The notes beneath the pieces are model-generated. The model did no database searches, was not told the DNA's origin, and saw only the letters and a list, made by a program, of their open reading frames with translations. A DNA stretch of 64,000 bases from Planctomycetota bacterium (lineage in GTDB: Bacteria; Planctomycetota; B15-G4; SIAN01): the NCBI GenBank assembly GCA_031409275.1, contig JANNXA010000043.1, forward strand, positions 17,106-81,105, given 5' to 3'. Below, in pieces: positions 31,907 to 47,581 of the stretch (position 1 is the stretch's first letter; every line of letters begins with the position of its first letter). The translations under genes were made by a program, and so were the position numbers.

Positions 31907-33777
31907 CGCGGCGCGCCGCGGCGCTCACCTCCGCCAGGAGTCGCGCGAAGTCGATCGGCTTCTCCAGCAACGGAAAAGCGCGCCGCTGGATGAAGCGAGC
32001 CACTTCGGGGGCGACCACGTCGCCGGTGATCGCGATGGCACGCGTGGCGAGCTCCGGCCAGCGCGATTGCACGCGCTCGAGCAGCTCGATGCCGCTCATG
32101 CCGGGCATGCGCAGGTCGGTCACCAGCACGTCGATCGGCTCGGTCGAATCGAGCAGGGCCAACGCCGCGGCGCTGTTCTCGGCCTCGCGAATCACGAAGC
32201 CGTGGCCGCTGAGATAGCGGCGCAGCAGTTCGCGGACCGGCGCCTCGTCGTCGACGAGGAGCACGCGTGGCGAAGGCGGCTCGACGCGCGGAGCATCGCG
32301 GGAGGGAGGCTCGATGGCTGCGGTGTGCGCGGGGGTGGCCGCAAGCTGGCCATCGCGGCGGGCGAGATCCGTCGACTCGCCCACCGGCAGTCGCACGACG
32401 AAGCAGGCGCCGCGACCGCCGTCGATGCGCGTCGAGGTCGTGATCGAGCCGCCGTGCGCCCGCACGATGCGTTGCGAGATCGCCAGGCCCAGCCCCGCGC
32501 TTCGCTGCGCGGACTTCGTGGTGAAGAACGGATCGAAGACGCGCTCGCGCAGCGCGGCTGCAACGCCGGGGCCATCGTCGCTGCAACGAAGGAGCACGTG
32601 TTGCGGACCGTCGCGGAGCGCCTCGATCTCGATGTGTCCATCCGGTGGCAGCGCTTCGAGCGAGTTGGCGAGGAGGTTGGCGATCACCTGCTCGAGCCCG
32701 GTGGCGTCGGCATGGATCTTCGGCAGGTCGGCAGCGAGTTGCGTCGTCACCGTCACGCGCGTGCGCGCGAGCTGCGGACCGATGTCGCGCTTCACCCGTG
32801 CCACGACTTGCGCGATCGACACCGGCGCGTAGCTCACGTGGCGCTGGCGCGTGATGTCGAGCAGGCCGCGCACGATGGTGCTGCATCGTTGCGACTGCTC
32901 GATGATGGTGCGCGCGGGCTGGCGCAGATCGTCGGAGAGGCGAGGATCGAAGTCAGCGGGTTGTTGAGCTCATGTGCGACGCCTGAGACGAGGACGCCGA
33001 GCGCTTCGAGCTTCTCCGATTCGGCGAGACGGCGGTGCAATGCCGCTCGTTCGGCCCGCGCATCCTCCGCTTCGTGCTCGACCCGCTGGAAGACGGTGAT
33101 CAAGAGCGCCACGGCGAGCGCCGTCTGCATCAGCAGGTCGATGAACGAGTTGTAGTGGGCGAGCCCCCAGATGAACGAGGCCAAGAACTCGGACTGGAAC
33201 CGGATCGAACCGAAGGAGATGGCGTAGAGCACCCACAGCAGCGCGAGCAGCGCGAACACGATGCTCGCGGCGCGCGAGCCGAAGCTGCGCCACTGCGCGG
33301 GAGCGCGCGCCAGGTAGAGGGCGGCCATCGTGCAGCACACGGCTGCAAATGGAGCCTGCAGCGCCATGGCCGAGTTGAGCTGCGGGGAGAGGAGCGGGGT
33401 CGCGGCCGCGCTGAGGCAGAAGGCGCCGGCGACGAGCGGCGTGGCGCGCGGCAGCGGCTTGCCGACGTAGCGCGCCACGCCGGTCAGCAGCCCACCGAAG
33501 TAGGCGAGCTTGCTCAACTGGTAGACGACGTCGAACGGCACACGCAGCCACGAAGGACCCCACAACGTGCCGGGCGGCGGCAGTTCGAGCACCTGGTAGC
33601 GCGTGAAGACCGTGACCAGCGCGACACCGAGCGCGCCGAACGCGACGCTCCAATCGCGCAGGTAGCGATGGCTCGAAGCAAGGCGGCGCAGCGCGACGAA
33701 CGTGCCCGCCAACAGCAGCGGGCGACGGTTTGGACCGAGATCCCGATGAACGAGAGCCGAGCGTCTTCGAGGTTCAC
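31848..33777 (-). pseudogene. Membrane hybrid histidine kinase with two frameshifts (pseudogene or assembly indels)
   Basis: Three frames join: GTG 33777 VNLEDARLSFIGISVQTVA, shift ~33721, LLLAGTF..GVAHELNNPLTSIL, shift ~32940, LSDDLRQPARTIIEQSQRCSTIVRGLL..HATPase..REC. Confidence 0.85.
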
Positions 33778-33865
33778 GCGAGGTGTCGTCCTACGGCCGG
33801 TCGCGGATGCGGGCGATGCTAGCATCGCTCGTTGCGCGCGCCGGGCGTCGCCAAGGAGCAATGAG

Positions 33866-35299
33866 ATGACGCTGTGGCTTTCGTGCCTGCTCGCCGTGCA
33901 TGTCGGATCCGCCAGCGAAGGCCAGACGGATCGCTACCGCCCGCTTGGTGTGAATGCGCAGGGGATGGCGCTCTTCGAGCGGCCGCGCGACGGTGCGCGA
34001 GTGGTCTGGATCCCGGCCGGCTCGTTCAAGATGAACGGCTACTTCCCGCGCCCGACCAGCGAGCCCGAGCATGAGTGGGTCTGGGTCGACGGCTACGCGA
34101 TCGACGAGACCGAAGTGACCAATCGTCAGTTCGCGGCGTTCCTGAATGCCACCAAGATCGAGAGCGATGCCGACGGCCATCCCCTGCTGGTCGAAGTCGA
34201 GCATGGGCTCGAGCAGGTCGATGGCCTCTGGCGGCCAAAGCTCGGCTGCGAACAACTGCCCGCGCTCGGCGTCACCGGCTTCGGCGCGATCGCCTTTGCG
34301 CGCTTCGTCGGCGGTGATCTACCGCTGCTGCCGGAATGGCAGAAGGCCGCGGGCGGCTTCGAGGGGCGCATCTTTCCTTGGGGCAGCGAGGAGCCTGACG
34401 CGACGCGCGCGAACTTCCGTCGCTTCGGTCCCGACCTGCCGATGCCAGTGAAGAGCTACCCCGCTGGAGTGAGTCCGTTCGGCTGCTACGACATGGCGGG
34501 CAACGTCTACGAGCGTGTCTACTCGGGTCGGGGTCGCGGCGGCAGCGCCGGGGCGCCCGCGATGATCCGCGGCGGGAGCTGGGCGTCGCCCCATCCGCTC
34601 AATCTGCGCACCTTCGACCTGTGCATGCAACCGCTCGAGGTGGGCGACCGCACGGTCGGCTTCCGTTGCGTGGTACGCAGCGGCGCCGGCTTGCCGGTGG
34701 CGCCAAGCGACCCGCTGCGCATGGCGCGGCACTGGGACGCCGCGCTGCGCGAGGCGCGCGAGCGCAACGTGCCGATCCTTCTTTCGCTGCAGTACGACAC
34801 CTGCGGCCAGTGCGATCGCACGAAGGTCGGTCTCTTCCGTGATCCGGAGTTCATCCGCGGCTGCAATGCCGGCGCGGTGCTGGTGGTGGGCCACGTCGCG
34901 CACGACGGCGCCGACGATCCGCATCCCGAGGACGCGAGCGGACGCTGCACGCTCTACCCGCAGCTCGAATGCATGGAGCACATCGACCTCTTCTACGAGG
35001 GGATCAAGCGAGTCGACGGCTTCCGCGTGTCGCCCGGCAACTTCCTCCTCGATCCGCGTGCCGACGACGCTTCCCGCAATCGCGACGATTGGGTCCTGGT
35101 CGACGAGGCGATGCTGCCGAAGTCGGGCGTCGGCACCGAGGCGTACCTCGACGCGATCGCGGAGGCGCAGACGATGCTCGGTGCGCCGAAGCTCACTCAC
35201 GAAGAGTGGGTGGCGATCGACGCGGCGCGACCGAAGGCGGAGCCGGAAGACGCTGGCGACGAGGCAGCGGACGATGACGATGACGATCAAGATCGGTGA
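33866..35299 (+). CDS. FGE/SUMF1-like domain fused to a thioredoxin-like CxxC domain, acidic tail
   Basis: TEVTNRQF, EWQKAAGG, FPWG, YDMAGNVYE, RGGSW, GFRC; then WDAALREARERNVPILL..CGQC. Confidence 0.85.
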   Translation: MTLWLSCLLAVHVGSASEGQTDRYRPLGVNAQGMALFERPRDGARVVWIPAGSFKMNGYFPRPTSEPEHEWVWVDGYAIDETEVTNRQFAAFLNATKIESDADGHPLLVEVEHGLEQVDGLWRPKLGCEQLPALGVTGFGAIAFARFVGGDLPLLPEWQKAAGGFEGRIFPWGSEEPDATRANFRRFGPDLPMPVKSYPAGVSPFGCYDMAGNVYERVYSGRGRGGSAGAPAMIRGGSWASPHPLNLRTFDLCMQPLEVGDRTVGFRCVVRSGAGLPVAPSDPLRMARHWDAALREARERNVPILLSLQYDTCGQCDRTKVGLFRDPEFIRGCNAGAVLVVGHVAHDGADDPHPEDASGRCTLYPQLECMEHIDLFYEGIKRVDGFRVSPGNFLLDPRADDASRNRDDWVLVDEAMLPKSGVGTEAYLDAIAEAQTMLGAPKLTHEEWVAIDAARPKAEPEDAGDEAADDDDDDQDR

Positions 35300-35482: not shown

Positions 35483-36472
35483 TCAGCTGCCGACGAGTTC
35501 CGCCATGTGCTTGGCGCGCTTGCCGGCGCGCGTCTCGCCGAACTTCTCGCCGAAGGCGTTCAGCGCCTTCACGACGGCCGCATCGAGGCCGTCCTTGGCG
35601 ATGCGCTTCTCGAGCTTCTCGAGCTGCTTGGCCGCTTCGCGCTCGGGAGCCATCTCCTTGGCGGTCAGCTTGCTGCTCAGCTCGGTCAGCTTCGTCGCCA
35701 GTTCGTGGCCCGCGAGCCCCTTCGCCAGCGTCGCCGCCAGCTTGTCCGCCTGCTCGAACTCGGCCGACTCGATCAGCCAATCGAGCCGCGCGAGCTTCGC
35801 CTTCGCGCGCACGGCGAGCTTGCCGGAGAGTTTGTCGGCCGCGTCCTTCTCGACGCCATCGGGGACCGCTTCGAGCGACTTGATGGCCGCCGCGAAGTTG
35901 CCCTTCTCGAAGTCCACCCACGCGGCTCGGCAGAGCGGTCCGAGATCGCTGGGGCCCTTCTTGGCGAGCTTCAACTGCTCCTTCAGCGCTTCCTCGATGG
36001 CCGTGTGCGCCGAGAGCGGGTTGTCATTGATCAGGACTTCACCGTCGTTGCTGAGCACGACGCAGTGCGGGATCCCGCCGGCGCCGGTCTCGAACGGCGG
36101 CTCGCACGTCCAGATGGCGGCGTCGCTGAACCACTTCTTCTGCAGGACGAACTTCTCCATGTCCTTGGCCGAAGCGCCCTGCGACTCGATGAAGAGGAAC
36201 TGCACGTCGTCGCCGTACTCTTCTTGCATCTTGATGGCCAGCGGCACGGCTGACCCGACACAAGGTCCTCAGCGAGTTCCCCAGAACTCCACGACGACCG
36301 GCCGCCCTTGCAGGTCGGCCAGGCTCTTCACGCCGCGGCCGTTCACCAGTGGCTGTTGCCAAGTGTAGCTCTGTTTGGCGCCGACTTTGGCGACGCCTTG
36401 CGCCACCGCAGTGCTGCCGGCCGTCAGGACGACGGCGGCCGCTGCGAAGCGCAACGTGCTCACGAACGACAT
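35483..36472 (-). CDS. Probable selenoprotein: exported TlpA/redoxin-like UxxC domain plus helical C-terminus (329 aa, UGA at codon 68)
   Basis: GAGGGAG RBS, signal peptide, SLADLQGRPVVVEFWGTR-TGA(36269-36271)-GPCVGSAVP in frame with ORF 35483..36247. Confidence 0.87.
36236..36255 (-). other. Candidate bacterial SECIS hairpin
   Basis: GGUCAGC-CGUGCC-GCUGGCC, 7-bp stem with one G-U, starting 13 nt after the UGA. Confidence 0.65.
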
Positions 36473-36718
36473 GTCTTCGATCTCCCTCTGGAAACAGGCG
36501 GAGCGGTGGGTCCACCCCGCCGCGGAACTGTGTGCACGGTTGGGACGCACGCTCGGAACCGAGGGCCCCTGTTTCATGGCCGCGGTCGGAAGTGCGTGGC
36601 GCCGGTTTACCGTTTCGTCTTCGGTACGACTGCAACGGAGATGAGGAGCGTCATTTCCAAGTCATCTGGCGTGCGGATTCGCCGCTTCGGGCGCCGCGCG
36701 TCGCTCGACTGCCGCGAC

Positions 36719-36754
36719 CTCGATCACTTCTTGACGCTCGATCACTTCTTGATG
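36719..36754. repeat. 18-bp tandem duplication
   Basis: CTCGATCACTTCTTGACG / CTCGATCACTTCTTGATG covering the stop of the VWA gene. Confidence 0.75.
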
Positions 36755-38292
36755 AACGTCGCCTGGCCGCTGTTCTGCTTCGCGAGCGCCTTGATGAAGT
36801 TCTCGACCGTCTGCGCGCCGATGCCGACGGCGTGGATGGTGATGCGGCGCGTCTCGTTCCACTTCTTCACCTCGGCGAGGATCTCCTCGCAGTCGGTGGT
36901 ACGGCCGCAGGTGGGGCCGCCATCGGAGAGGAAGAGGATCGTGTCGCCGGTCGTGGCGTAGTACTTGTCCTTGGTCGAGAGCGGGGCCAGTCGGAACGCC
37001 GTCTCGAGCGCGTCGAAGATGTTGGTCTGGCCCACCGCCGCGAGGCCGTCGAGCCACTCACCGACCTTCTTCTTGTTGTCGGCCGTCGCCATCACGTTGC
37101 GGTCGTTCCACGGGATCACGACGTCGCTGTAGGCGATGACGTTGAAGCTCGCCTCGGGCGGCAGCCCCTGGATCGACGCCTTCACCTCGCGGCGCGCGAG
37201 GTCGATGCGCGACTTGCCGGGCTCGGGGGTGAGATTCTCGTAGTCGTCGACGGCGGCAAGCATCGAGCCGGAAATGTCGACGACGTAGACCACCTTCAGC
37301 GAGTCGAACTTGATGTGGAAGAAGTCGGCGTACTTGCCGCTCTCCTTGGTGACCTGCGCCGGCTGCGTGACGTCGATGCCGCGCGGCTCGAACGTCGTGC
37401 GCGCCTTCTGCCACCAATCGACCCATGCCGCTGGCGTCTTCCCGAACTTCTGGCCGGTGATCTGCTCGAGCCGCCCGCACAGGTCGGCGAGCGGCTTGCC
37501 CGTTTCCTTCGCCGTCTGATTCACCAGCATCTCGAGCGCCGTGCGATCGCCGATTCGCGCGAGCGCGTCGACCGCGATCGACCGTTCCTGCCATTCCGGT
37601 CCGCGCAGCAGCGGCGCGAGCGCGCCCGGTGGGATGAACTCCGGGCGCTGTTTCAGCAGTGCCGCGGCCACGGCGAGCCGCACCTCGACCACCGGATCGT
37701 CGAGCAACCCGATCAGGTGCTCGGCCACCTTGCCGTGGTCGATGCGCCCCAGCACTTCGAGCAGCACCAGCCGCAGCCGCTCCGGCTTCTTCGGTGGCGC
37801 CGCCATCAGGTACTCGAGCGTCTCCTCGCGCTTGCACTTCGCGAAGGCGTCGACGTAGCCGCGCACCGCTTTCTCTTCGTAGCCGATGCGTGCGCCGAGC
37901 ACCTTCTGGTCGAGCTGCAGTTCCTCGACGCCGGAGTAATTGGGCTTCGCCCCTTTGCCGCCCTTCTCGATCTGCGCCTTCAGGATCTTCTCGAGCTTGC
38001 CGTCGACTTCGTCGCGCTCCGCGGCGAACTCGTCGAGCTTCACGAGGGTCGCGGTGAGGAACTCCATCAGCAGCTTCGCGGTGCCGACGGTGTCGTAGAA
38101 GGCGACGTTCTCGATGGCGGCCAGCCGCTTCTCGATCTCGGCGCCGGGCGCGAGCTCCTTGCGGTAGCGCTTCACGTCGTCGGCGGGCGGCGCCGATTGG
38201 CAGCGGCCGAGCGGCGGGGCGACGGCCAGCGTCGCCAGCGCGGCAACGACGGCGTGAACCAGGAGGAGCGGTCGCGAGGTGGGGAGGCGCAT
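36742..38292 (-). CDS. HEAT-repeat + VWA domain protein (exported)
   Basis: Signal peptide; HEAT repeats; MIDAS VVDISGSM, GQTN, FLSDGGP. Confidence 0.9.
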   Translation of the reverse strand: MRLPTSRPLLLVHAVVAALATLAVAPPLGRCQSAPPADDVKRYRKELAPGAEIEKRLAAIENVAFYDTVGTAKLLMEFLTATLVKLDEFAAERDEVDGKLEKILKAQIEKGGKGAKPNYSGVEELQLDQKVLGARIGYEEKAVRGYVDAFAKCKREETLEYLMAAPPKKPERLRLVLLEVLGRIDHGKVAEHLIGLLDDPVVEVRLAVAAALLKQRPEFIPPGALAPLLRGPEWQERSIAVDALARIGDRTALEMLVNQTAKETGKPLADLCGRLEQITGQKFGKTPAAWVDWWQKARTTFEPRGIDVTQPAQVTKESGKYADFFHIKFDSLKVVYVVDISGSMLAAVDDYENLTPEPGKSRIDLARREVKASIQGLPPEASFNVIAYSDVVIPWNDRNVMATADNKKKVGEWLDGLAAVGQTNIFDALETAFRLAPLSTKDKYYATTGDTILFLSDGGPTCGRTTDCEEILAEVKKWNETRRITIHAVGIGAQTVENFIKALAKQNSGQATFIKK

Positions 38293-38442
38293 GGCGGGTG
38301 CTCGAGGGGACCTTTGGCCCGCAAGATAGGCGGTGCGCGCGGTCGCTGCAGCAGCGGGCGGCGCCACCGCCGTTGAGCGGCTCGTTGCTGCCAGCTACAA
38401 ACGTCGGCCCTTTCCTGTCACGCGAAGCGCGGAGCGCCTGTC

Positions 38443-40440
38443 ATGAGCAGCACCGATTCCCACGGCCACGACGACCACGGTCACGGCGGCGGCCACGGTC
38501 ACGACAGCCACGACGAAGCTCCCGCCGGACCGCCGACCGATTGGGCGAAGGTGCGCAACGTCGGCGCCATCGTGCTGATGCTGCTGGTCGTCGTCATCCT
38601 CGGCACGCTCGTCTCCTGCACCCACCCCGAGGCCGATGCGCAAGTCGCGGCGCGTCAGCAGGCGGAGTCCGCGCAGAAGGGCTTCTCCATGGCGCGACTC
38701 GCCGAGGCCGACTCCTTCCTCGCGGCCTACCAGAGCGAGTACCAGAAGCTCTACGCCGCGGCCAACGAGGCGGAATGGCTCTCGAACACCCACATCGTCG
38801 AGGGCGACGATCGCAACGCGAAGAACTCCGACGCCACGAAGTCGGCGCTCGCGGCGTTCACCGGCAGCGAGCGGGTGATCACCCGTTGCCGTGAGCTGCT
38901 GGCCGACGAGTCGCGCCTCGCTCCGGTGCAGGTGCGGCAGCTCAAGGCGATCCTCTACCTCGCGGGCGACAAGCCGGCCATCGCCAAGGAGCTCGTCGAT
39001 CAACGCATCGCCGCCGAGACGCGCCAGACCGAGGCGCTGTTCGGCTACACGTTCCACCTCGACGGCAAGGAGGTCACGGTCAACGACCTCGATCGCGTCC
39101 TGCGCGAGGAGAAGGACCTGACCAAGCGGCAGGCGGCGTGGGAGGCCAGCAAGGCGGTCGGCAGCACCCTGAAAGATGGGCTCGCCAACCTGCAGCGGCT
39201 GCGCAACAGCACGGTGCGCGCGCTCGGCTACTCCGACTTCTTCAGCTACCAGGTCTCCGAATACGGGATGACCACCGACGAGATGCTCGCGCTGAACGAC
39301 CTCGCGCTGAAGCAGCTGCGACCGCTCTATCGCGAGCTGCACACCTGGGCGCGGCACGAGCTGGCGAAGCGCTACGGAGTGCCGGTGCCCGACATGATCC
39401 CGGCGCATTGGCTGCCCAACCGCTGGAGCCAGGACTGGAACGCGCTGGTCGACGTCGAGGGGGTGAACCTCGATGCCGCGCTCGCCGACAAGACGCCGCA
39501 GTGGCAGGTCGAGCAGGCGGAACGCTTCTACGTGAGCCTCGGCTTCGAGAAGCTGCCCGCCATCTTCTGGGAGAAGTCGTCGCTCTACCCGGCGCCCGAA
39601 GGCGCGGGCTGGAAGAAGAACAACCACGCTTCCGCGTGGCACATGGACCTCGACCACGACGTGCGCTCGCTGATGAGCGTCGAGAGCAACTCCGAGTGGT
39701 ACGAGACGACGCACCACGAACTCGGCCACATCTACTACTACCTCTCCTACTCCAACCCGAAGGTCCCCTTGATCCTGCGTTCCGGTGCGAACCGCGCCTA
39801 CCACGAGGCGGTCGGCACGATGATGGGGCTCGCTGCGATGCAGCCGCGCTTCATGGCGGCGGTCGGCCTCACGCCGGACGGCAAGGCGCCGGTGCTGAGC
39901 GACGAAACCAAGCGCCAGCTCCTGATGCGCGATGCGCTGAACTACCTCGTCTTCATGCCGTGGAGCTCCGGCGTGATGACCCACTTCGAGCAGGAGCTCT
40001 ACGGCAAGGAACTGCCCAAGGAGAAGTGGAACCAGCGCTGGTGGGAGCTGGTGGCGAAGTACCAGGGAGTGGTTCCGCCGACGGCGCGCGGCGAGGAGTT
40101 CTGCGACGCTGCCACCAAGACGCACATCAACGACGACGCGGCCCAGTACTACGACTACGGCCTCTCCTTCCTGCTGCTGTTCCAGCTCCACGACCACATC
40201 GCGCGCAACCTGCTGCACGAGGATCCGCACGACACCAACTACTACGGCCGCAAGGAGGTCGGCGACTTCCTGAAGCGGATCCTGGCACCGGGCGCGAGCG
40301 TCGACTGGCGCCAGCTGATGCGCGACTCGATCGGCGAAGAGCTCTCCGCCGGCGCGATGCTGCGCTACTTCGAGCCGCTGATGGAGTGGTTGAAGAAGGA
40401 AAACTCCGGCCGTACCTGCACGCTGCCTGAACTGAACTGA
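38443..40440 (+). CDS. M2 family metallopeptidase (ACE/peptidyl-dipeptidase A-like)
   Basis: IPAHWL, FWEKS, HASAW, HHELGH, GANRAYHEAVG, YFEPLMEWL. Confidence 0.95.
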   Translation: MSSTDSHGHDDHGHGGGHGHDSHDEAPAGPPTDWAKVRNVGAIVLMLLVVVILGTLVSCTHPEADAQVAARQQAESAQKGFSMARLAEADSFLAAYQSEYQKLYAAANEAEWLSNTHIVEGDDRNAKNSDATKSALAAFTGSERVITRCRELLADESRLAPVQVRQLKAILYLAGDKPAIAKELVDQRIAAETRQTEALFGYTFHLDGKEVTVNDLDRVLREEKDLTKRQAAWEASKAVGSTLKDGLANLQRLRNSTVRALGYSDFFSYQVSEYGMTTDEMLALNDLALKQLRPLYRELHTWARHELAKRYGVPVPDMIPAHWLPNRWSQDWNALVDVEGVNLDAALADKTPQWQVEQAERFYVSLGFEKLPAIFWEKSSLYPAPEGAGWKKNNHASAWHMDLDHDVRSLMSVESNSEWYETTHHELGHIYYYLSYSNPKVPLILRSGANRAYHEAVGTMMGLAAMQPRFMAAVGLTPDGKAPVLSDETKRQLLMRDALNYLVFMPWSSGVMTHFEQELYGKELPKEKWNQRWWELVAKYQGVVPPTARGEEFCDAATKTHINDDAAQYYDYGLSFLLLFQLHDHIARNLLHEDPHDTNYYGRKEVGDFLKRILAPGASVDWRQLMRDSIGEELSAGAMLRYFEPLMEWLKKENSGRTCTLPELN

Positions 40441-40506
40441 GTGGATCTGAATTGAACGGAGGCCGCCAGTCGCGCCGGGTGCCTGCGCCGGTCGATGAGG
40501 TCCGCG

Positions 40507-42120
40507 ATGCAGACTGGCGAAACGCTCCTCCTCATCCTGGCCGCGGTGACCGGTTTCGGCGCGTTGGCGCGTCGAATCGGCCTGCCCGAGCCGATCGTGC
40601 TGGTGCTGGCCGGGCTCGGACTCTCGCTCGTGCCGGGTGTGCCCGAGGTCGACCTCAATCCCGACTGGATCTTCCTGCTGGTCCTCCCGCCGCTGCTGCA
40701 TGCGCAGGCGTGGGTCACCTCGTGGAAGGAGTTCCGCTCGCACCTGCGGACGATCAGCTTGATGGCGGTCGGGCTGGTCCTCTTCACGGCGTTGGTGGTG
40801 GCGTGGGTCACCAAGCTCGTGGTGCCCGAGCTGCCGTGGGCCGCTGCCTTCGCGTTCGGCGCGATCGTCTCGCCGCCTGACGCGGTGGCCGCGTCCGCGA
40901 TCGCCGGCAAGCTGCGGCTGCCGCGCCGGCTCGTGACGATCCTCGAAGGCGAGAGCCTGGTGAACGACGCGACCGGCCTGGTCGCCTATCGCTTCGCGTT
41001 GGCGGCGATCGCCAGCGGCAGCTTCGCGCTGGAGGAAGCGGCAGCGAACTTCTTCGTCGTCGCGCTCGGCGGCATCGCGATCGGGCTGATCGTCGGCGTC
41101 GCGGTCGCCTGGGTCTTCCGTCGCGTGAAGGACGCTTCGATTGCCATCGCGCTGTCGTTGGTCGCGCCTTACCTCGCCTACCTGATCGCCGAACGCAGCC
41201 ATGTCTCGGGCGTCCTCGCGGTGGTGGCCGAAGGCATCGTGCTCGGCACGTTGGCGTCGGAAGTGCTCTCGGCGAGCGCTCGGCTCGAGGGGTTCAGCTT
41301 CTGGCAGATGGTCGTCTTCCTGCTGAACGGGACGGCGTTCCTGCTGATCGGCCTGCAGTTGCCGGCCGTCGCGCAACGCAGCTGCGAGGAGTCGTGGGCC
41401 ACGCTGCTGCTCGACGCGATCGTCGTGGTCGGGGCCGCGATCGGCGCGCGCCTCGCCTGGGTGACGGTCAGCGGATTCGTCGCCCGATTGATGGGCCGCT
41501 TCGGTCTCAACCGCCATCGTCCGCTGCCGTGGCGGCAGGTCTTCGTGGTGGGCTGGGCGGGGATGCGCGGCGTCGTCTCGCTGGCGGCGGCGCTGGCGCT
41601 GCCGCGCACCATGGAGGGCGCCGGCGCCTTCCCGTGCCGCGATCTGGTGATCTTCCTCACCTTCTCGGTGATCCTCGGCACGCTGGTGCTGCAAGGATTG
41701 TCGCTGCCGTTCGTCATCCGGCGGCTCGGCGTGGCCGGTGATGGAGTCGAGGAAGCGGAGCGTGAACGCGAGGCGCGCGTCGCCGCGGCGACCTCGGCCA
41801 TCGCGCATGTGAAGACGCTGGCGAAGAGCGGTCAGTACCTCGCCACGGCGACGCAGCTCGTGTCGGCCGAGTACACCGATCGCATCCGCCGCCTCCACCA
41901 AGGTCGCGCGTCGCTGATCGGCGAAGCGGGCAGCGAGGTGATGCGAGTGCAGGGCACGGCAGCGCTGCGACGGGCCGGGCTGCATCGCGAGCGCGAGACG
42001 CTGCTCGACCTGCACCGCCGCCACCTGGTCGAGAAGGAGACGCTGCTCAAGCTCGAGCGCGAACTCGACCTCGAGGAGACGCGTCTGCAGGGCGCCGAGG
42101 GCCACGTCACCGGGACGTGA
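40507..42120 (+). CDS. CPA1 (NhaP-type) Na+/H+ antiporter
   Basis: LPPLL, SPPDAVA, ILEGESLVNDA, SGVLAVV, WAGMRGVVSLAAAL. Confidence 0.93.
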   Translation: MQTGETLLLILAAVTGFGALARRIGLPEPIVLVLAGLGLSLVPGVPEVDLNPDWIFLLVLPPLLHAQAWVTSWKEFRSHLRTISLMAVGLVLFTALVVAWVTKLVVPELPWAAAFAFGAIVSPPDAVAASAIAGKLRLPRRLVTILEGESLVNDATGLVAYRFALAAIASGSFALEEAAANFFVVALGGIAIGLIVGVAVAWVFRRVKDASIAIALSLVAPYLAYLIAERSHVSGVLAVVAEGIVLGTLASEVLSASARLEGFSFWQMVVFLLNGTAFLLIGLQLPAVAQRSCEESWATLLLDAIVVVGAAIGARLAWVTVSGFVARLMGRFGLNRHRPLPWRQVFVVGWAGMRGVVSLAAALALPRTMEGAGAFPCRDLVIFLTFSVILGTLVLQGLSLPFVIRRLGVAGDGVEEAEREREARVAAATSAIAHVKTLAKSGQYLATATQLVSAEYTDRIRRLHQGRASLIGEAGSEVMRVQGTAALRRAGLHRERETLLDLHRRHLVEKETLLKLERELDLEETRLQGAEGHVTGT

Positions 42121-42153
42121 GCGCTTGCCGGGCGACCGCTACGATCCGCGCCG

Positions 42154-43299
42154 ATGATTCCCACCCGCAAGACGCGCACGATCCACATCCGTCACCTCGC
42201 CATCGGCGGCGTCGCCCCGATCGCGGTCCAGAGCATGGCGGCCACCCGCACGCGCGACGTCGCGGCGACGATCCGCCAGGTGCAGTTGATCGCCGCGGCC
42301 GGCGCCGACCTCGTGCGCATCGCGGTCGACAACGACGCGGACGTCGAGGCGCTCGCGCTGGTCCGCAAGGCGACCACCGCGCTGCTCTCGGTCGACCTGC
42401 AGGAGAACTGGCGCCTCGCCGAGAAGGTGGCGCCCTTCGTCGACAAGGTGCGCTACAACCCCGGCCATCTCCATCACCACGAGAAGTCGATGGCGGTGAA
42501 GGAGAAGGTGGCGTGGATCGTCGGCGTGGCGAAGCGTCACGGCCTCGCGCTGCGCATCGGCGTCAACGCGGGCTCGATCGATCCGGCGCTCGAGGCGAAG
42601 TTCCCGGGCGACCATGTCGCGGCCATCGTGCAGTCGGCGGTCGACCATTGCGCGATCGTCGATGACCTTGGCTTCCTCGACTACTGCGTCTCGATCAAGG
42701 ACAGCGATCCGCGCCTCGTCATCGACGCGAACCAGCGCTTCGCTGCCGTGCGCCCCGACGTGCCGATCCATCTGGGGGTGACCGAAGCGGGCATGCCGCC
42801 GGACGGGATCATCAAGACGCGGATCGCCTTCGAGCAGCTGCTCTCCCGCGGCATCGGCGACACGCTGCGCGTCTCCCTCACGCTGCCCTTCGACGACAAG
42901 GGGCAGGAGATCACGGTCGGCCGCGCGCTGCTCGCCGACGTCGAGGCTGGCCGCTTCCGCTCGGTCCCGCCCAACTTCTTCAACCAGCTGAACATCGTGA
43001 GCTGCCCCTCCTGCAGCCGCGTCGAGAACGAGAAGTTCATCGAGCTCGCGCAGGAGATCCAGCGCATGACGGCATGGGCCAAGGAGCACGCCATCACGAT
43101 CGCCGTGATGGGCTGCCGCGTGAACGGCCCCGGTGAGACCGACGACGCCGACTTGGGCCTCTGGTGCGGCCCGACCCACGTCAACCTGAAGCGCGGCGAA
43201 GAGACGGTCGGCGCCTACACCTACGAGCAGATCCTCCCGAAGGTGAAGGCGGAGGTGGAGCGGCTCGTCGTCGCGAAGGGCGGCGCGCTGCCGAAGTAG
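42154..43299 (+). CDS. ispG: (E)-4-hydroxy-3-methylbut-2-enyl-diphosphate synthase
   Basis: [57 protein letters not shown]. Confidence 0.96.
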
Positions 43300-43330
43300 C
43301 GGCGAGGTGGGGCGCGGAACGCAAGGTCGC

Positions 43331-46258
43331 TCAGCGCGGTCGCGCGGTGATTCGGAGCGGCGCGTCGATCGGCGTGTCGCCGATCTCGACGATGAGTTCG
43401 TCGGCGACGATCAACGCGGAGCGGACGAAGAGGCGCCAGCGGCCGGGCGGGAGCTCGAGCGCGAAGCGGCGCAACGCGGGATCGTCGTCGTCGCGCGGCT
43501 CGACCGGGGTCGCGCCGCCGATCGGAGCGCTCGTTTTGCCCTCGGCAGCGAAGACGTGCACCTCGCACGGCGCATCGCGGACGTCGGGGTCGATCGAGGA
43601 CTGGTCGATCTCGACCGACATCGACAAGCGGGGCGGCAGCGTGATCGGCAGCGCGTCGCCGGCCGGCCAGGCGGGGAGCTCGAGCTCGATCACGGGCGGC
43701 AGCACGAAGGTGCCCGGCGACCGTTTCGGCACGAGGCGCAGCCGCGCGACGGGCGGCAGATCGGCGTGCAGCGTGACAACACCGTCGCTATCGGTCGCCG
43801 CCTGCGCCAGCGGCTGCGCGCGCCGCCGATCCGCGGACGCGTCGAAGAGCCATACCTGGCAGCCGTCGGCGGCGGTCGTCCCGCCCGCTTCGAGGACGCG
43901 CAGTCGCTGATCGGGCTTCGGTTCGAGGGTGATCGTGCCGAGGTCGAGATCTTGTTCGCTCGCGACGTCGACGGTGCGCGGCGCCGGCGGGCGATAGCGG
44001 TCGGTCTCGAACCGCAGCGTCCACTCGCCGGGCGCGGCCTGCGCCGTGAAGGGCGCATCGCCGCCGCCCTTGCGCTGCCAGATGCGCGGCGAAGGCCAGC
44101 GCTCGAGCGACCATTCGGCGGTGTAGAGCAAGTCGGTCGCGATCGGTCGCCCCGTCGTCGCATCGACGAAGCGCGCCATGAGCCGGCCCGGCTTCGGCGG
44201 CTCCTCGCCGCGTGCCTGTCGCGCGAGCCCTTCGTCGAGCCGCGCTCTCCACGCGGCGCTCACCGGCGGCAGCGTCACCTCGTACGGTTCCTCGCGCGGC
44301 TCGAACACGCCGAGCTCGATCGGACTGCAGAACAGGCCGCTCGGTTCGCCCCACGGTCCGACCACCACGACGTGCCACGGCCCGCCGACCGGCAACTGCA
44401 GAATGACTCGCTGGTCGGGCATCGCGGCGAGATCGGACTGTGCTTGCAGCAGCATCAACCAGTCGTCGCCAGCAGCGGATGCCGCCTGCGCCTCCGCGAG
44501 CGGCAGCTTGAGCGCGCCGATGGACAAGAACGCTCCCGCGGCAAGGAGGTAGCGCACCTCATCGGCGTCAGTCGGGTCGGCGATCGCCACGTCGAGCGTC
44601 AGTAGATGCTGCTGGCGCCTCGCCAGCTTCACCTCGAAGGTCGGCCGACCGCGCGGCGGGACGGTCACGAAGAGCTCGCCCGGCCGATGCTCGGCAGTGC
44701 GCACCAGCAGGCGCGTGATCTCGGCGGCATCGATGGCCACCGCGACGCCGAAGGTCGAATCGCCGGCTTCGAAGAGCTGCCCCCTGCGCCGCCGTCCGAC
44801 GCGGGAGCTGGCCAGCACCTCGAGCAGCCAGCCGCTGGCGAGCCGCTCCTTCACCTGCAGCGGGGCGCCGTCAGCCTCGGTGACGCGCACGAAGAACTGC
44901 GTCTCGCTGCGTAGCCGAACCTCGATCGGCTCGGAGCGAGCACCGGGGGCGACCTTCGGCAGCGAGACGTCGCGCCGTCGCCAATCGGGAGCAACCACCA
45001 GCACGCTGCGATCGGCGCTCGTCGTGACCAGCTCGAAACGACCCGCGGCGTCGGTGATCGCCTCCTCATCGTCGAGAGCGAACCCCTCCTCCCACGGTGC
45101 GAGCGCGTCGGGACCGGCGTTGCGGCGCGACAGCAGTGCGACCGGCTCGAGTCTGCGCCGCGACCAAGGCCGATCGAACGCTCGCTCGGTCAGGAAGGAG
45201 TAGCGGGCCCCCGCGGTCACCAGCGCGCCCGCGATCGGCGCGCTCGAGGCATCGTCGACGACGACACCCTCGAAGGTGCGGTGGCGCTCGAAGACGACGT
45301 CGGGCAGCTCCGTCGTCGCGCCGTCGTTCACCAGCACGTTGCGGGTTCGCATCGTCTGCCCGCGCCGGAAGAGGAGAGCGAGTGGCTCTTCGCGGCGCGG
45401 ATCCATCCGCCCGTCGTCGGTGATCCAGATCGCGCCCGCGCGCGAGCGGAGCGCATCGACCTGGTAGCGCCCCTTCGCGTCGGTCGTGGTGATCGCCTCG
45501 AAGCGGCCGCGGAGTCGCTGCGCGAGTGGCGAGTCGGGCTCGCGCCACTGGAGCTCGAGTTGAGCGGCGAGCAGCTGGCCGCCCGGCTGCGGATCGACGC
45601 CGACCTCGACGCCGGCGAGCGGCTGGCCGAGGTCGTCGACGACGCGGCCCGTCGCCGTGCCGCCGTAGCCGACCTCCATCGTGAACGACTTCTCTTGGCC
45701 GTCGGAGAGCCACGTCGCGGCGATCGTGTTGGCGTGCGGTGCGCGGCGCGGCGTCTCGAAGATCACGACGTCTTCAGGAAGCTGCTCGATCGTCAGCTCG
45801 CCCTCCTCGTCGGTCAGGCCGCAGACGAAGACGTGCGTGTTCGGCCGCTCGCTCCAGACGACCACCGGCAGGTCGGCGAGCGGCTCGCGGGTGTCGCCAT
45901 CGACCACTCTGAGCTCAATGGCCCCGCGGCCGCGGTAGTGAGCTTCGGCGGGGCGCAGTGCGCCGCCGCTCGTCTCATCGCTGTCGACGGTCCGGGTACT
46001 GGCGTCGATCGAAGTACGCGCGACATCCTCGACGCGCTCCGGGGTCGCCGTCGCGGCCGCCGCCGCCGCGCTGCGATCGCCACCGCCGCGCTCCTTCGGA
46101 AGCGCAGGTCGGCGCAGCGTCACGCCACTGTTCTGCAGCGAGTGCACGACGATGCCGCCGACCGCGATCGGCACGCCGAGCCAGAGCAGCGCCCGCGGCC
46201 ATCGCCGCCAACGACGCGCCTCCTCCGGCTGCTGTCGAGCGTGTCGCATCCGGTTCAC
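43331..46258 (-). CDS. Membrane-anchored carboxypeptidase-regulatory-like repeat protein
   Basis: N-terminal TM; GRVVDDLGQPLAGV, TTDAKGRY, TDAAGRF repeats. Confidence 0.75.
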   Translation of the reverse strand: MNRMRHARQQPEEARRWRRWPRALLWLGVPIAVGGIVVHSLQNSGVTLRRPALPKERGGGDRSAAAAAATATPERVEDVARTSIDASTRTVDSDETSGGALRPAEAHYRGRGAIELRVVDGDTREPLADLPVVVWSERPNTHVFVCGLTDEEGELTIEQLPEDVVIFETPRRAPHANTIAATWLSDGQEKSFTMEVGYGGTATGRVVDDLGQPLAGVEVGVDPQPGGQLLAAQLELQWREPDSPLAQRLRGRFEAITTTDAKGRYQVDALRSRAGAIWITDDGRMDPRREEPLALLFRRGQTMRTRNVLVNDGATTELPDVVFERHRTFEGVVVDDASSAPIAGALVTAGARYSFLTERAFDRPWSRRRLEPVALLSRRNAGPDALAPWEEGFALDDEEAITDAAGRFELVTTSADRSVLVVAPDWRRRDVSLPKVAPGARSEPIEVRLRSETQFFVRVTEADGAPLQVKERLASGWLLEVLASSRVGRRRRGQLFEAGDSTFGVAVAIDAAEITRLLVRTAEHRPGELFVTVPPRGRPTFEVKLARRQQHLLTLDVAIADPTDADEVRYLLAAGAFLSIGALKLPLAEAQAASAAGDDWLMLLQAQSDLAAMPDQRVILQLPVGGPWHVVVVGPWGEPSGLFCSPIELGVFEPREEPYEVTLPPVSAAWRARLDEGLARQARGEEPPKPGRLMARFVDATTGRPIATDLLYTAEWSLERWPSPRIWQRKGGGDAPFTAQAAPGEWTLRFETDRYRPPAPRTVDVASEQDLDLGTITLEPKPDQRLRVLEAGGTTAADGCQVWLFDASADRRRAQPLAQAATDSDGVVTLHADLPPVARLRLVPKRSPGTFVLPPVIELELPAWPAGDALPITLPPRLSMSVEIDQSSIDPDVRDAPCEVHVFAAEGKTSAPIGGATPVEPRDDDDPALRRFALELPPGRWRLFVRSALIVADELIVEIGDTPIDAPLRITARPR

Positions 46259-46345
46259 CCCCGCTCGTCACCCTCGCTGCCCGGTCCTGCGGTGCCGCAC
46301 CGGGTACCGTACAGCGAAGTATCGCCTCCGCCGCGGAGCAGTCCC

Positions 46346-47581
46346 ATGACGTCAATCGCGCTCCTCGCCCTTTCAGCCGTCGCGGTCCTGCAGCCGGTGG
46401 GTCACGAAGGGCCGCGGCCGCTCGCACCCGCCGACGTCGCTGCGCTGCATCGCGAGCTCCTTCCCGCGCGCGACGAACCGTGGCAGACGATCGGCTGGCG
46501 CGTCGATCTGCTCGCCGCGCGCGACGAGGCGATCCGCGCGAAACGTCCGCTCTTCCTGTGGGCGATGAACGGCCATCCGCTCGGCTGCGTCTGAAACAAC
46601 GGGGTGCTCGACCGTGAGTCGAGCTTCGCCGACCAGGACGTGATCGAGCTGCTGCAGCGCCGCTTCGTGCCGGTCGCGCTCGACGTCTGGTACGAGGAGC
46701 GGCGCCAGGACGCGGCGGGGGAGTTCTTTCGCAAGGTCGTTGCGCAGCGCGCCGGGCTGCAGCCTGGCCAGACGACGCAGGGCTTCTACGCCTTCGGGCC
46801 CGACGGAACGCTGCTCGAGGGGTGGAACCATCGTGGCGTCGATCGGCTGAAGGAGCGGCTGAAGGCGGCGCTCGAGGAGTGGAAGCCATCGGTCGCAGCG
46901 GCGCTCACTGGTGCCGTTGATGGCCGCTTCGACCGGACGTTGCCCGCAGGCGCTGCGGTCGTTGATGTCCGTGCGCGCATCACCGAGGCGAAGTGGCCGA
47001 AGGCGGAGGACGACTTCCAGCGCACGTTGCAGCAGGCGACGAGCCTCGACCACCTCTGGATCGTGCGCGAGGAGGTCGCGGCGCTCGCGAGCGGCACGTT
47101 CCCGCCGGCGCTGGCGCGACGCATCGCGCGCTTCCACTGCATCGACAACACGCGCGGCGAGCCGCCGCTGTGGGAGCCGACCGAGGTGCAATGCTGCGAC
47201 GTGGTGCTGACGCCCGATCCGCAGTTCCGCCGCAGCAGCGCTGGCGCGAGCGGCACCGCCGCTGGCGCGACCCGGCAGCTCGTCGACGGCACCGTGACAC
47301 TCGCGACCGCCGATGGGAAGCGCCGCTACTCCGCGCGCATCGGCGGGATCATCGAGTTCGCGGGCGCCGAGCTTGCGCGCTTCGACCTCGCCGTTCGCGG
47401 TACGTTCGAGGGCGGCGGCGACTACACCCGCGATCCGCCGGCGGGCGAGTTCACGCTCGCGATCGTCTTCCGCCTGGCGCAACGCGCCAAGGACGGCACG
47501 TTGCCGCCCGCCGCGCAGGTTCCGCCGCAAGGGGCGCGCTGGCTCGACGACTACCTCGGGCGAGTGAGCGGGCGCGAGTAG
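46346..47581 (+). CDS. Probable selenoprotein: exported thioredoxin-like protein with CxU motif (411 aa, UGA at codon 83)
   Basis: GGAG RBS, signal peptide, W...W..DL.AA..EA....RPLFLWAMNGHPLGCV-TGA(46592-46594)-NNGVLDRESSFAD..VIELLQRRFVPVA in frame with ORF 46604..47581. Confidence 0.82.
46606..46624 (+). other. Candidate bacterial SECIS hairpin
   Basis: GCUCGAC-CGUGA-GUCGAGC, perfect 7-bp stem starting 11 nt after the UGA. Confidence 0.7.

Follow-up and report, generated by a model that had tools for sequence, protein, structure and literature searches.

What do two in-frame TGA codons, each closely followed by a hairpin with a CGUG loop, do in two genes on opposite strands of a planctomycete contig, and what proteins do these genes encode? 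The locus lies within 64,000 nucleotides of contig JANNXA010000043.1 (positions 17,106 to 81,105; assembly GCA_031409275.1, Planctomycetota bacterium), a stretch referred to here as the window. An earlier note on this DNA had described the two UGA-plus-hairpin elements, and both are found where it placed them, in different genes on opposite strands, each with a 7-bp stem and a CGUG loop. Judged from sequence, both hairpins are very likely canonical in-gene bacterial selenocysteine insertion sequence (SECIS) elements. The motif itself is ordinary, and the interest lies in the genes that it reveals: gene 1 is a thioredoxin-type selenoprotein of a catalogued kind, and gene 2, which belongs to an uncatalogued family that is nearly always selenocysteine (Sec)-encoded, is probably a circularly permuted relative of selenoprotein N (SelN). 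The elements and genes are listed below in window coordinates; Cys denotes cysteine.

35483..36472, minus strand: gene 1, a predicted exported selenoprotein of 329 aa (read-through translation)
36269..36271, minus strand: in-frame TGA of gene 1, inferred Sec codon (TGC at the same column in Cys homologues)
36236..36255, minus strand: predicted SECIS of gene 1, GGTCAGC[CGTGCC]GCTGGCC, 7-bp stem (fold and covariation)
46346..47581, plus strand: gene 2, a predicted exported selenoprotein of 411 aa, NGHPLGCxU family, Sec83 (read-through translation)
46592..46594, plus strand: in-frame TGA of gene 2, where the thioredoxin fold has its attacking Cys; inferred Sec codon
46606..46624, plus strand: predicted SECIS of gene 2, GCTCGAC[CGTGA]GTCGAGC, 7-bp stem (fold and covariation)

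The genome has 5.59 Mb at 69% GC and 93% completeness, and close homologues carry the label Planctomycetota. It encodes selA, selB, selD and tRNA-Sec (selC), all above curated cut-offs, and its selD has an in-frame TGA of its own. TGA is also the main stop codon, closing 3329 of 3965 gene-like open reading frames (ORFs), and recoding must therefore be local. In read-through translation, each of the two TGAs interrupts one long reading frame. The stem begins after 13 nt in gene 1 and after 11 nt in gene 2, and the respective loops, CGUGCC and CGUGA, begin 20 nt and 18 nt past the UGA. The minimum-energy fold includes both hairpins, with stem-loop energies of -10.6 (gene 1) and -10.2 kcal/mol (gene 2) and energy z-scores of -0.69 and -1.73, which are ordinary for DNA with 69% GC. 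Neither folding energy alone nor a loose rule that accepts any loop with a G discriminates SECIS elements in this genome. The case beyond chance for both hairpins is comparative. Among 10 Sec orthologues of gene 1, 97% of alignment cells are paired and two-sided changes occur at five of the seven pairs; none of 500 shuffles scores as high on four of five measures, slid controls are far lower, and the two Cys forms have no hairpin at the SECIS offset. For gene 2, 28 sequences that were selected for carrying a hairpin at this offset are 84% paired, with two-sided changes at six of seven pairs; G056 (locus L102) counts as one row both in this alignment and in the family tallies below, and none of the claims depends on it by itself. 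Kin are not independent and the stems lie inside coding sequence, so these covariation counts are taken as support and not as probabilities. Contigs from three metagenome runs, which may themselves be the source of the genome, have no alternative letter at either TGA.

Whether the shared CGUG loop marks a class of its own was assessed with 34 TGA genes curated by eye for redox motifs or homology. Candidates were listed with a dicodon coding model as TGAs with coding signal on both sides; 25 of the 34 came from a hairpin-blind list, eight from hairpin-filtered lists, and selD was found separately. A CGTG-loop hairpin with a stem of at least 6 bp follows 7 of the 34 Sec codons, in a set that leans slightly towards hairpins because of those eight, compared with 6 of 2871 true TGA stops and 10 of 4000 in-gene Cys codons. 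The comparison with ordinary stops that the earlier note had called for thus came out in its favour, with the motif about 100-fold rarer there. A broader definition (perfect stem, G then G or U in loop positions 1-2) covers 30/34 Sec genes, 264/2871 true stops and 321/4000 Cys codons. Counting the motif over all TGA triplets in six frames gives no enrichment over control triplets (239/98864), because out-of-frame TGAs swamp the signal. The loops of the other 27 Sec genes are GGUC, GUU, AGUU, AGGU, GUA, GGG and others. The same note had pointed to selD and formate dehydrogenase as further places for the motif; the loop of selD is GUU, and searches of this 93%-complete genome found no Sec formate dehydrogenase. 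Among 25 selD genes of relatives, the loop is CGTGA or CGTGC in 11, GTC, GTG or GTT in 10, and other or none in 4, and CGUG occurs at the same offset in homologues of gene 2 whose records are titled Kiritimatiellia, Armatimonadota, Gemmatimonas and Latescibacterota. With CGUG in a minority of Sec genes, GUU in selD and recurrence in other phyla, the proposal of a lineage-specific CGUG SECIS does not hold; CGUG is one frequent spelling of the canonical N-G-U-N loop, strongly enriched but a minority. The spelling follows the residues that are encoded. The gene 1 loop encodes Ala/Ser-Val-Pro, with GTG as the Val codon, and the gene 2 loop opens with an Arg codon that is CGT in 27 and CGC in 3 of 79 homologues. 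CGC makes up 66% of Arg codons in this genome (84770/129025, a count for this genome and not for those of the homologues), and the preference for CGT at the loop is what would be expected under selection for a loop G-U or G-G. In the shared CGUG, a Val GTG or Arg CGT codon of a GC-rich genome supplies the G-U that is required, and no new recognition element is involved.

Gene 1 has a TlpA/ResA-type thioredoxin domain with the motif F-W-G-T-R-U-G-P-C (Sec68). Its N-terminus is signal-like, and its C-terminal region is long, probably helical and without a Pfam match. Its NCBIfam and Pfam matches (TrxA, ResA, TlpA, Redoxin, AhpC-TSA) are weak and all below cut-off. Among 41 genomes, its own included, 12 matches at E<1e-60 have TGA (10) or TGC (2) at the Sec column, and full-length orthologues occur mainly within this order; the CGUG loop is invariant in the 10 Sec orthologues. 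In one relative (G004), gene 1 stands with a Cys copy 1.3 kb away (L048).

Gene 2 is the more unusual of the two. It carries G-C-V-U-N-N-G around its Sec and has no Pfam or NCBIfam family match, and 16 aligned family members give no NCBIfam match at E<=0.1 and a single Thioredoxin_7 match (E 0.003). The family is present in 23 of 41 related genomes; its 27 matches there comprise 23 with TGA, two Cys forms and two cut by contig ends. At least 412 loci are confirmed in GTDB species genomes, and the family forms 3402 clusters at 50% identity, 2229 of them at E<=1e-10. In all 80 fetched GTDB loci the Sec column is TGA, never TAA or TAG, and selB is present in 45 of 50 tested host genomes. Databases hold this family largely in pieces: all 54 database homologues of gene 2 cover at most 79% of the query, which is the share downstream of the UGA, and the downstream part of gene 2 is stored as a separate 'hypothetical protein'. 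Seventeen of the best 150 family representatives span the Sec column, with Cys in seven and other residues in 10. Four of these full-length relatives (P0083, P0164, P0178, P0198) are fused behind Ser/Thr kinases, and three of the four have neither Cys nor Sec at the catalytic column, which suggests from sequence that the two-domain unit may double as a binding or sensing module. Cys81 is kept in at least 90% of alignment A1. TsoC (NF045708) was considered as an identity for gene 2 and ruled out, with no match in the genome at E<=10 and none among the 16 members. A search of titles and abstract starts found no publication on the gene 2 family, bacterial SelN, permuted SelN or the planctomycete selenoproteome. 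Table 1 of PMC13188914 has neither the NGHPLGCxU motif nor a SelN-like entry.

The link to SelN depends on the two domains of gene 2.

46472..46894, plus strand: thioredoxin-like (Trx) domain of gene 2, residues about 43-183, UAS/AGR2/DsbD-C/DsbH subgroup
46943..47530, plus strand: C-terminal domain of gene 2 (residues about 200-395), rich in beta-strands and with likely homology to the beta-domain at the N-terminus of the SelN-like protein (profile match, secondary-structure order, bridge protein L253)

The same genome encodes a SelN-like protein (G000:C23:24919-26145, minus strand; L162/L197) in which a beta-domain precedes the Trx domain, with the motif C-U-G-S-G and a GGUC-loop SECIS. It has strong matches in 11 of 401 genomes of the phylum and no Pfam or NCBIfam family. 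When profiles of the two families were compared with hhalign, the Trx domains aligned with Sec in register (P 96.9, E 1.5e-10), the gene 2 TGA falling on the U of C-U-G-S-G. The beta-domains also matched (P 56-76%, E 2e-5 to 1e-4), with a score of 40-41.5 compared with at most 26 in 30 shuffles and an E of 0.15-0.44 for the reversed control. In native order the SelN-like profile gives two gene 2 matches in crossed order; with its domains swapped it gives one 247-column match (P 97.1, E 5e-11). Predicted models of the two proteins share the order of helices and strands once the domains are swapped. L253, a Sec protein that is naturally Trx-first, acts as a bridge, scoring 51 and 46 bits with the two Trx profiles and 16 and 14 bits with the two beta-domain profiles. 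SelN-like sequences rank 1, 2 and 4 among 11 single templates for the gene 2 Trx domain. In an ESM Atlas search with Cys forms, both families retrieve the eukaryotic cluster named 'Selenoprotein N' (0.91), and the motif of human SelN is SCUG (PMC12839072). With the SelN-like protein as query, two protein-database searches gave 7 and 6 hits, all of them bacterial or unnamed and none a named animal SelN, and PDB sequence searches gave no solved structure matching it. Structure searches with both predicted models gave the same top folds, generic DsbD-C, AGR and UAS domains; these searches used whole-protein models, whose match lists were filled by the Trx domain, and gave no fold match for either beta-domain.

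Several observations weigh against this reading. Atlas scores near 0.9 arise for 4-10 of 100 shuffled proteins, and the connection to animal SelN comes from the name of that cluster and from a C-U-G motif that the bacterial SelN-like protein shares. A control profile built from eight other UAS-type domains of this genome aligns to the gene 2 Trx domain with a score of 51 (E 3.4e-8), compared with 65, and in a genome-wide hidden Markov model (HMM) search the SelN-like gene is only 0.9 bit ahead of the next Trx domain. The SelN beta-domain HMM gives at most 5 bits, which is not significant, on 204 single members of the gene 2 family; a deeper beta-domain template brought no gain (P 56-66%), and in the short-form subfamily, with gene 2 as a typical member, the beta-domain P is only 2-4%. 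Cys81 is G, S, T or A in several family members. No conserved gene neighbourhood points to a substrate, and none extends beyond close kin. A finder that admits no bulges detects no perfect-stem hairpin in 20 of 79 family members. Sec read-through at both UGAs is predicted from DNA sequence, and no RNA run was among the sequencing runs listed for this DNA.

These points could be taken to mean that, with canonical SECIS hairpins and an uncatalogued gene 2, the resemblance of gene 2 to SelN goes no further than a UAS/Thioredoxin_7-type fold held in common, joined to an unrelated, independently acquired beta-domain. The generic UAS-type profile match, the generic folds at the top of the structure searches and the insignificant single-sequence beta-domain scores would all fit. 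This account is improbable in our judgement, because the beta-domain profile match lies above every shuffle and the reversed control, the permuted template yields one collinear alignment, L253 links both beta-domains, and the Atlas names SelN for both families. A different possibility concerns the hairpins, namely that SelB of this lineage recognizes a special C[CGUG..]G loop. The enrichment after Sec codons, the invariance among gene 1 orthologues and the 11 of 25 selD genes of relatives speak for such a class, which is nevertheless very unlikely: most Sec genes, including selD, use other loops, selD of relatives switches among loop types, and the same loop recurs in other phyla within the gene 2 family and falls inside the published consensus (PMC13188914). 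The TGAs might also be true stops, each locus being two small genes or a pseudogene, or TGA might be reassigned throughout the genome. The database entry for the downstream part of gene 2 and the unremarkable hairpin energies are in keeping with true stops, but TGA stands at the catalytic Cys column without a single TAA or TAG in 80 loci and full-length Cys homologues exist, and reassignment conflicts with TGA as the main stop codon; the chance of either is close to nil. We therefore favour, with good confidence, canonical SECIS recoding at both UGAs and gene 2 as an exported, circularly permuted SelN relative. A broader proposal, which we still consider likely, is that SelN is one branch of a large unrecognized bacterial clan of exported selenoproteins that combine a UAS-type Sec-Trx domain with a dedicated beta-domain, with the NGHPLGCxU family, spread over many phyla, as its most abundant bacterial form and a natural circular permutant. 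This clan would have been overlooked because almost every copy is split at the UGA. A bacterial SelN orthologue is reportedly treated in unpublished or thesis work.

In bacteria, SelB-GTP-Sec-tRNA binds the apical G-U and decodes UGA (PMC13188914). The same step very likely operates in this genome, where SelA, SelB, SelD, tRNA-Sec and conserved, covarying stems with an early loop G-U provide its basis in sequence: SelB-GTP-Sec-tRNA would bind the loop and deliver Sec at the UGA. Gene 1 would then act as a thiol-disulfide reductase outside the cytoplasm through a Sec68-Cys71 selenenylsulfide cycle and would probably be re-reduced via DsbD, of which this genome has a Sec type. In gene 2, Sec83 may be the exposed nucleophile of a UAS-type fold with U-x-x-G and no downstream resolving Cys, as in the C-U-G-S-G of the SelN-like protein, so that resolution would fall to nearby Cys81 or to an external thiol. 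The beta-domain may dock a specific protein or small-molecule substrate. Gene 2 could thus work in the cell envelope as a substrate-specific reductase or as a redox switch, comparable to SelN in the lumen of the endoplasmic reticulum, with its domains in the opposite order.

The earlier note had also anticipated a large, mis-annotated, exported selenoproteome. Size and mis-annotation are borne out: 34 Sec candidates were curated, about 31 of them with family or motif support, and the count is given as about 31-34 because L174, L185 and L186 are backed by coding score and hairpin. Export is a modest tendency, since a hydrophobic N-terminus, a crude heuristic affected by some wrong starts, occurs in 19 of 34 Sec proteins compared with 1396 of 3444 genes (41%). 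The ten genomes reported at the top of BSepDB have 46-63 selenoprotein genes (PMC13326102), and this selenoproteome is large yet under that published top ten. Among 31 curated proteins, NCBIfam matches above cut-off are Trx7/PDZ, VPGUxxT, SelT/W/H, ArsC-like, AhpD-like and MsrA, and those below it are BCP/Prx, TlpA, DsbD, glutaredoxin and deiodinase-like. Nine have no NCBIfam match at 1e-6, and Pfam assigns five of these (HMA, FG-GAP in two, Redoxin and HEAT). Formate dehydrogenase is the commonest bacterial selenoprotein; the Sec set of this genome consists nearly entirely of thiol-redox and envelope proteins. L188, L190-L193 and L195 were rejected as read-through genes, being true stops or unsupported (one is two adjacent EutN genes), and about 190 further coding-score candidates are operon junctions by eye.

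Other members of this set are also distinctive. Two large FG-GAP/ASPIC-UnbV proteins with a C-terminal redoxin domain (L157 and L158; G000:C34:63098-65827 and G000:C14:294193-297498) contain an internal TGA, a SECIS and the motif U-S-x-x-W-R, and no catalogued family was seen for them. L187 (G000:C11:21971-22600), a Redoxin-family protein with five Cys paralogues in the genome, has Sec four residues from its C-terminus (G-U-G-I-K-M), and its SECIS extends past the stop codon. L179 (G000:C6:1617-2384) combines a heavy-metal-associated domain bearing G-U-S-G-G with a CGUGC loop, and L170 (G000:C34:159067-161169) is a BCP-type peroxiredoxin (T-P-G-U) fused to what appears by eye to be an M28 peptidase. 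Sec and Cys paralogues lie close together for MsrA (E 6e-139; G000:C37, about 61.3 kb and 62.4 kb) and for glutaredoxin (G000:C51, minus strand, near 270.5-271 kb); these close pairs, and that of gene 1 in G004, are possibly low-selenium back-ups. More TGA-bearing UAS-type Trx families occur in Planctomycetota (L253-L270), with motifs that include DEEFC-U-ANG, LDDGL-U-SAG, DKEGC-U-AAG and ARGRC-U-GGA. They give scores with the Trx profile of the SelN-like protein as well as with that of gene 2, and are probably further uncatalogued selenoprotein families of the SelN/gene 2 clan. L261 (G026:C381) has a SelN-type beta-domain without a Trx domain, apparently fused (by eye) to a cyclophilin-like region; the beta-domain may be a mobile module.

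Within the window, the plus strand at 33035-35299 encodes an FGE-sulfatase-domain protein whose C-terminal part has, by eye, a thioredoxin-like C-G-Q-C segment; its gene is convergent with gene 1. Between genes 1 and 2 (36742-46258) lie genes for a VWA/HEAT protein, an ACE-like M2 peptidase, a Na+/H+ exchanger, ispG and a carboxypeptidase-regulatory-like protein. In G003 the two selenoprotein genes likewise occur on a single contig, about 8 kb apart; no functional link between them is evident.

Standard gene callers fragment the 31 to 34 or so Sec genes of this planctomycete and a family with at least 412 GTDB loci. Loss of human selenoprotein N causes congenital myopathy. If the proposed relationship is true, a soluble bacterial permutant that is widespread and occurs in natural Sec, Cys and catalytically dead versions would make the chemistry, partner-binding domain and origin of SELENON testable. 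Such proteins could become small soluble models in which to study what the human myopathy protein acts on and by what chemistry, and they would point to a bacterial root for SELENON. Cys forms are rare in the gene 2 family, and methods that need many Cys homologues can miss families of this kind, a limit stated for deep-Sep (PMC12013277). Bacterial SelN is missing from the 119-family selenoprotein catalogue, as far as its tabulated families go (PMC13188914).

Comparison with known systems places each component. The legend to Fig. 2A of PMC13188914 gives the bacterial SECIS consensus as a 3-9 nt loop on a 4-16 bp stem, an apical loop 16-37 nt from the UGA and an energy below -7.5 kcal/mol, the first or second loop position being a G, often with G or U after it. 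Both hairpins agree with this E. coli fdhF type in their coding-region location 3' of the UGA, spacing, loop, stem and energy, and have no difference that defines a new class. Gene 1 shares W-x-x-x-U-G-P-C, and the existence of Sec and Cys forms, with the Prx-like/TlpA/Redoxin UxxC selenoproteins (PF00578, PF08534) in Table 1 of PMC13188914, but it lies under every curated cut-off and has an extra C-terminal region; it is a further member of this catalogued type, outside any named equivalog. The likeness of gene 2 to TsoC is a superficially similar PxGxxU motif (NEPxGxxU in TsoC). The Trx7/PDZ selenoprotein (NF041199) belongs to the same Trx subgroup as gene 2, but NF041199 matches another gene of this genome (L167). 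Thioredoxin_7, DsbH, DUF255, UAS and AGR2 folds (PDB 3f9u, 3ph9, 2dlx, 3ira, 7tkv) differ in that gene 2 lacks CxxC and has a Sec nucleophile, and these matches leave its beta-domain uncovered. The closest comparison is with SelN (SELENON/SEPN1) and the SelN-like protein, which share with gene 2 the UAS-type Trx domain, Sec at the same column followed by x-x-G and a predicted extracytoplasmic location; the beta-domain of gene 2 is likely homologous to that of the SelN-like protein. Compared with SelN, gene 2 has its Trx domain first, C-x-U instead of adjacent C-U and no EF-hand family match in Pfam, and compared with the SelN-like protein its model appears one beta-hairpin short, with identity too low for single-sequence detection. 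As the domain order is reversed, gene 2 is best described as a relative of the SelN family and not as a member of it.

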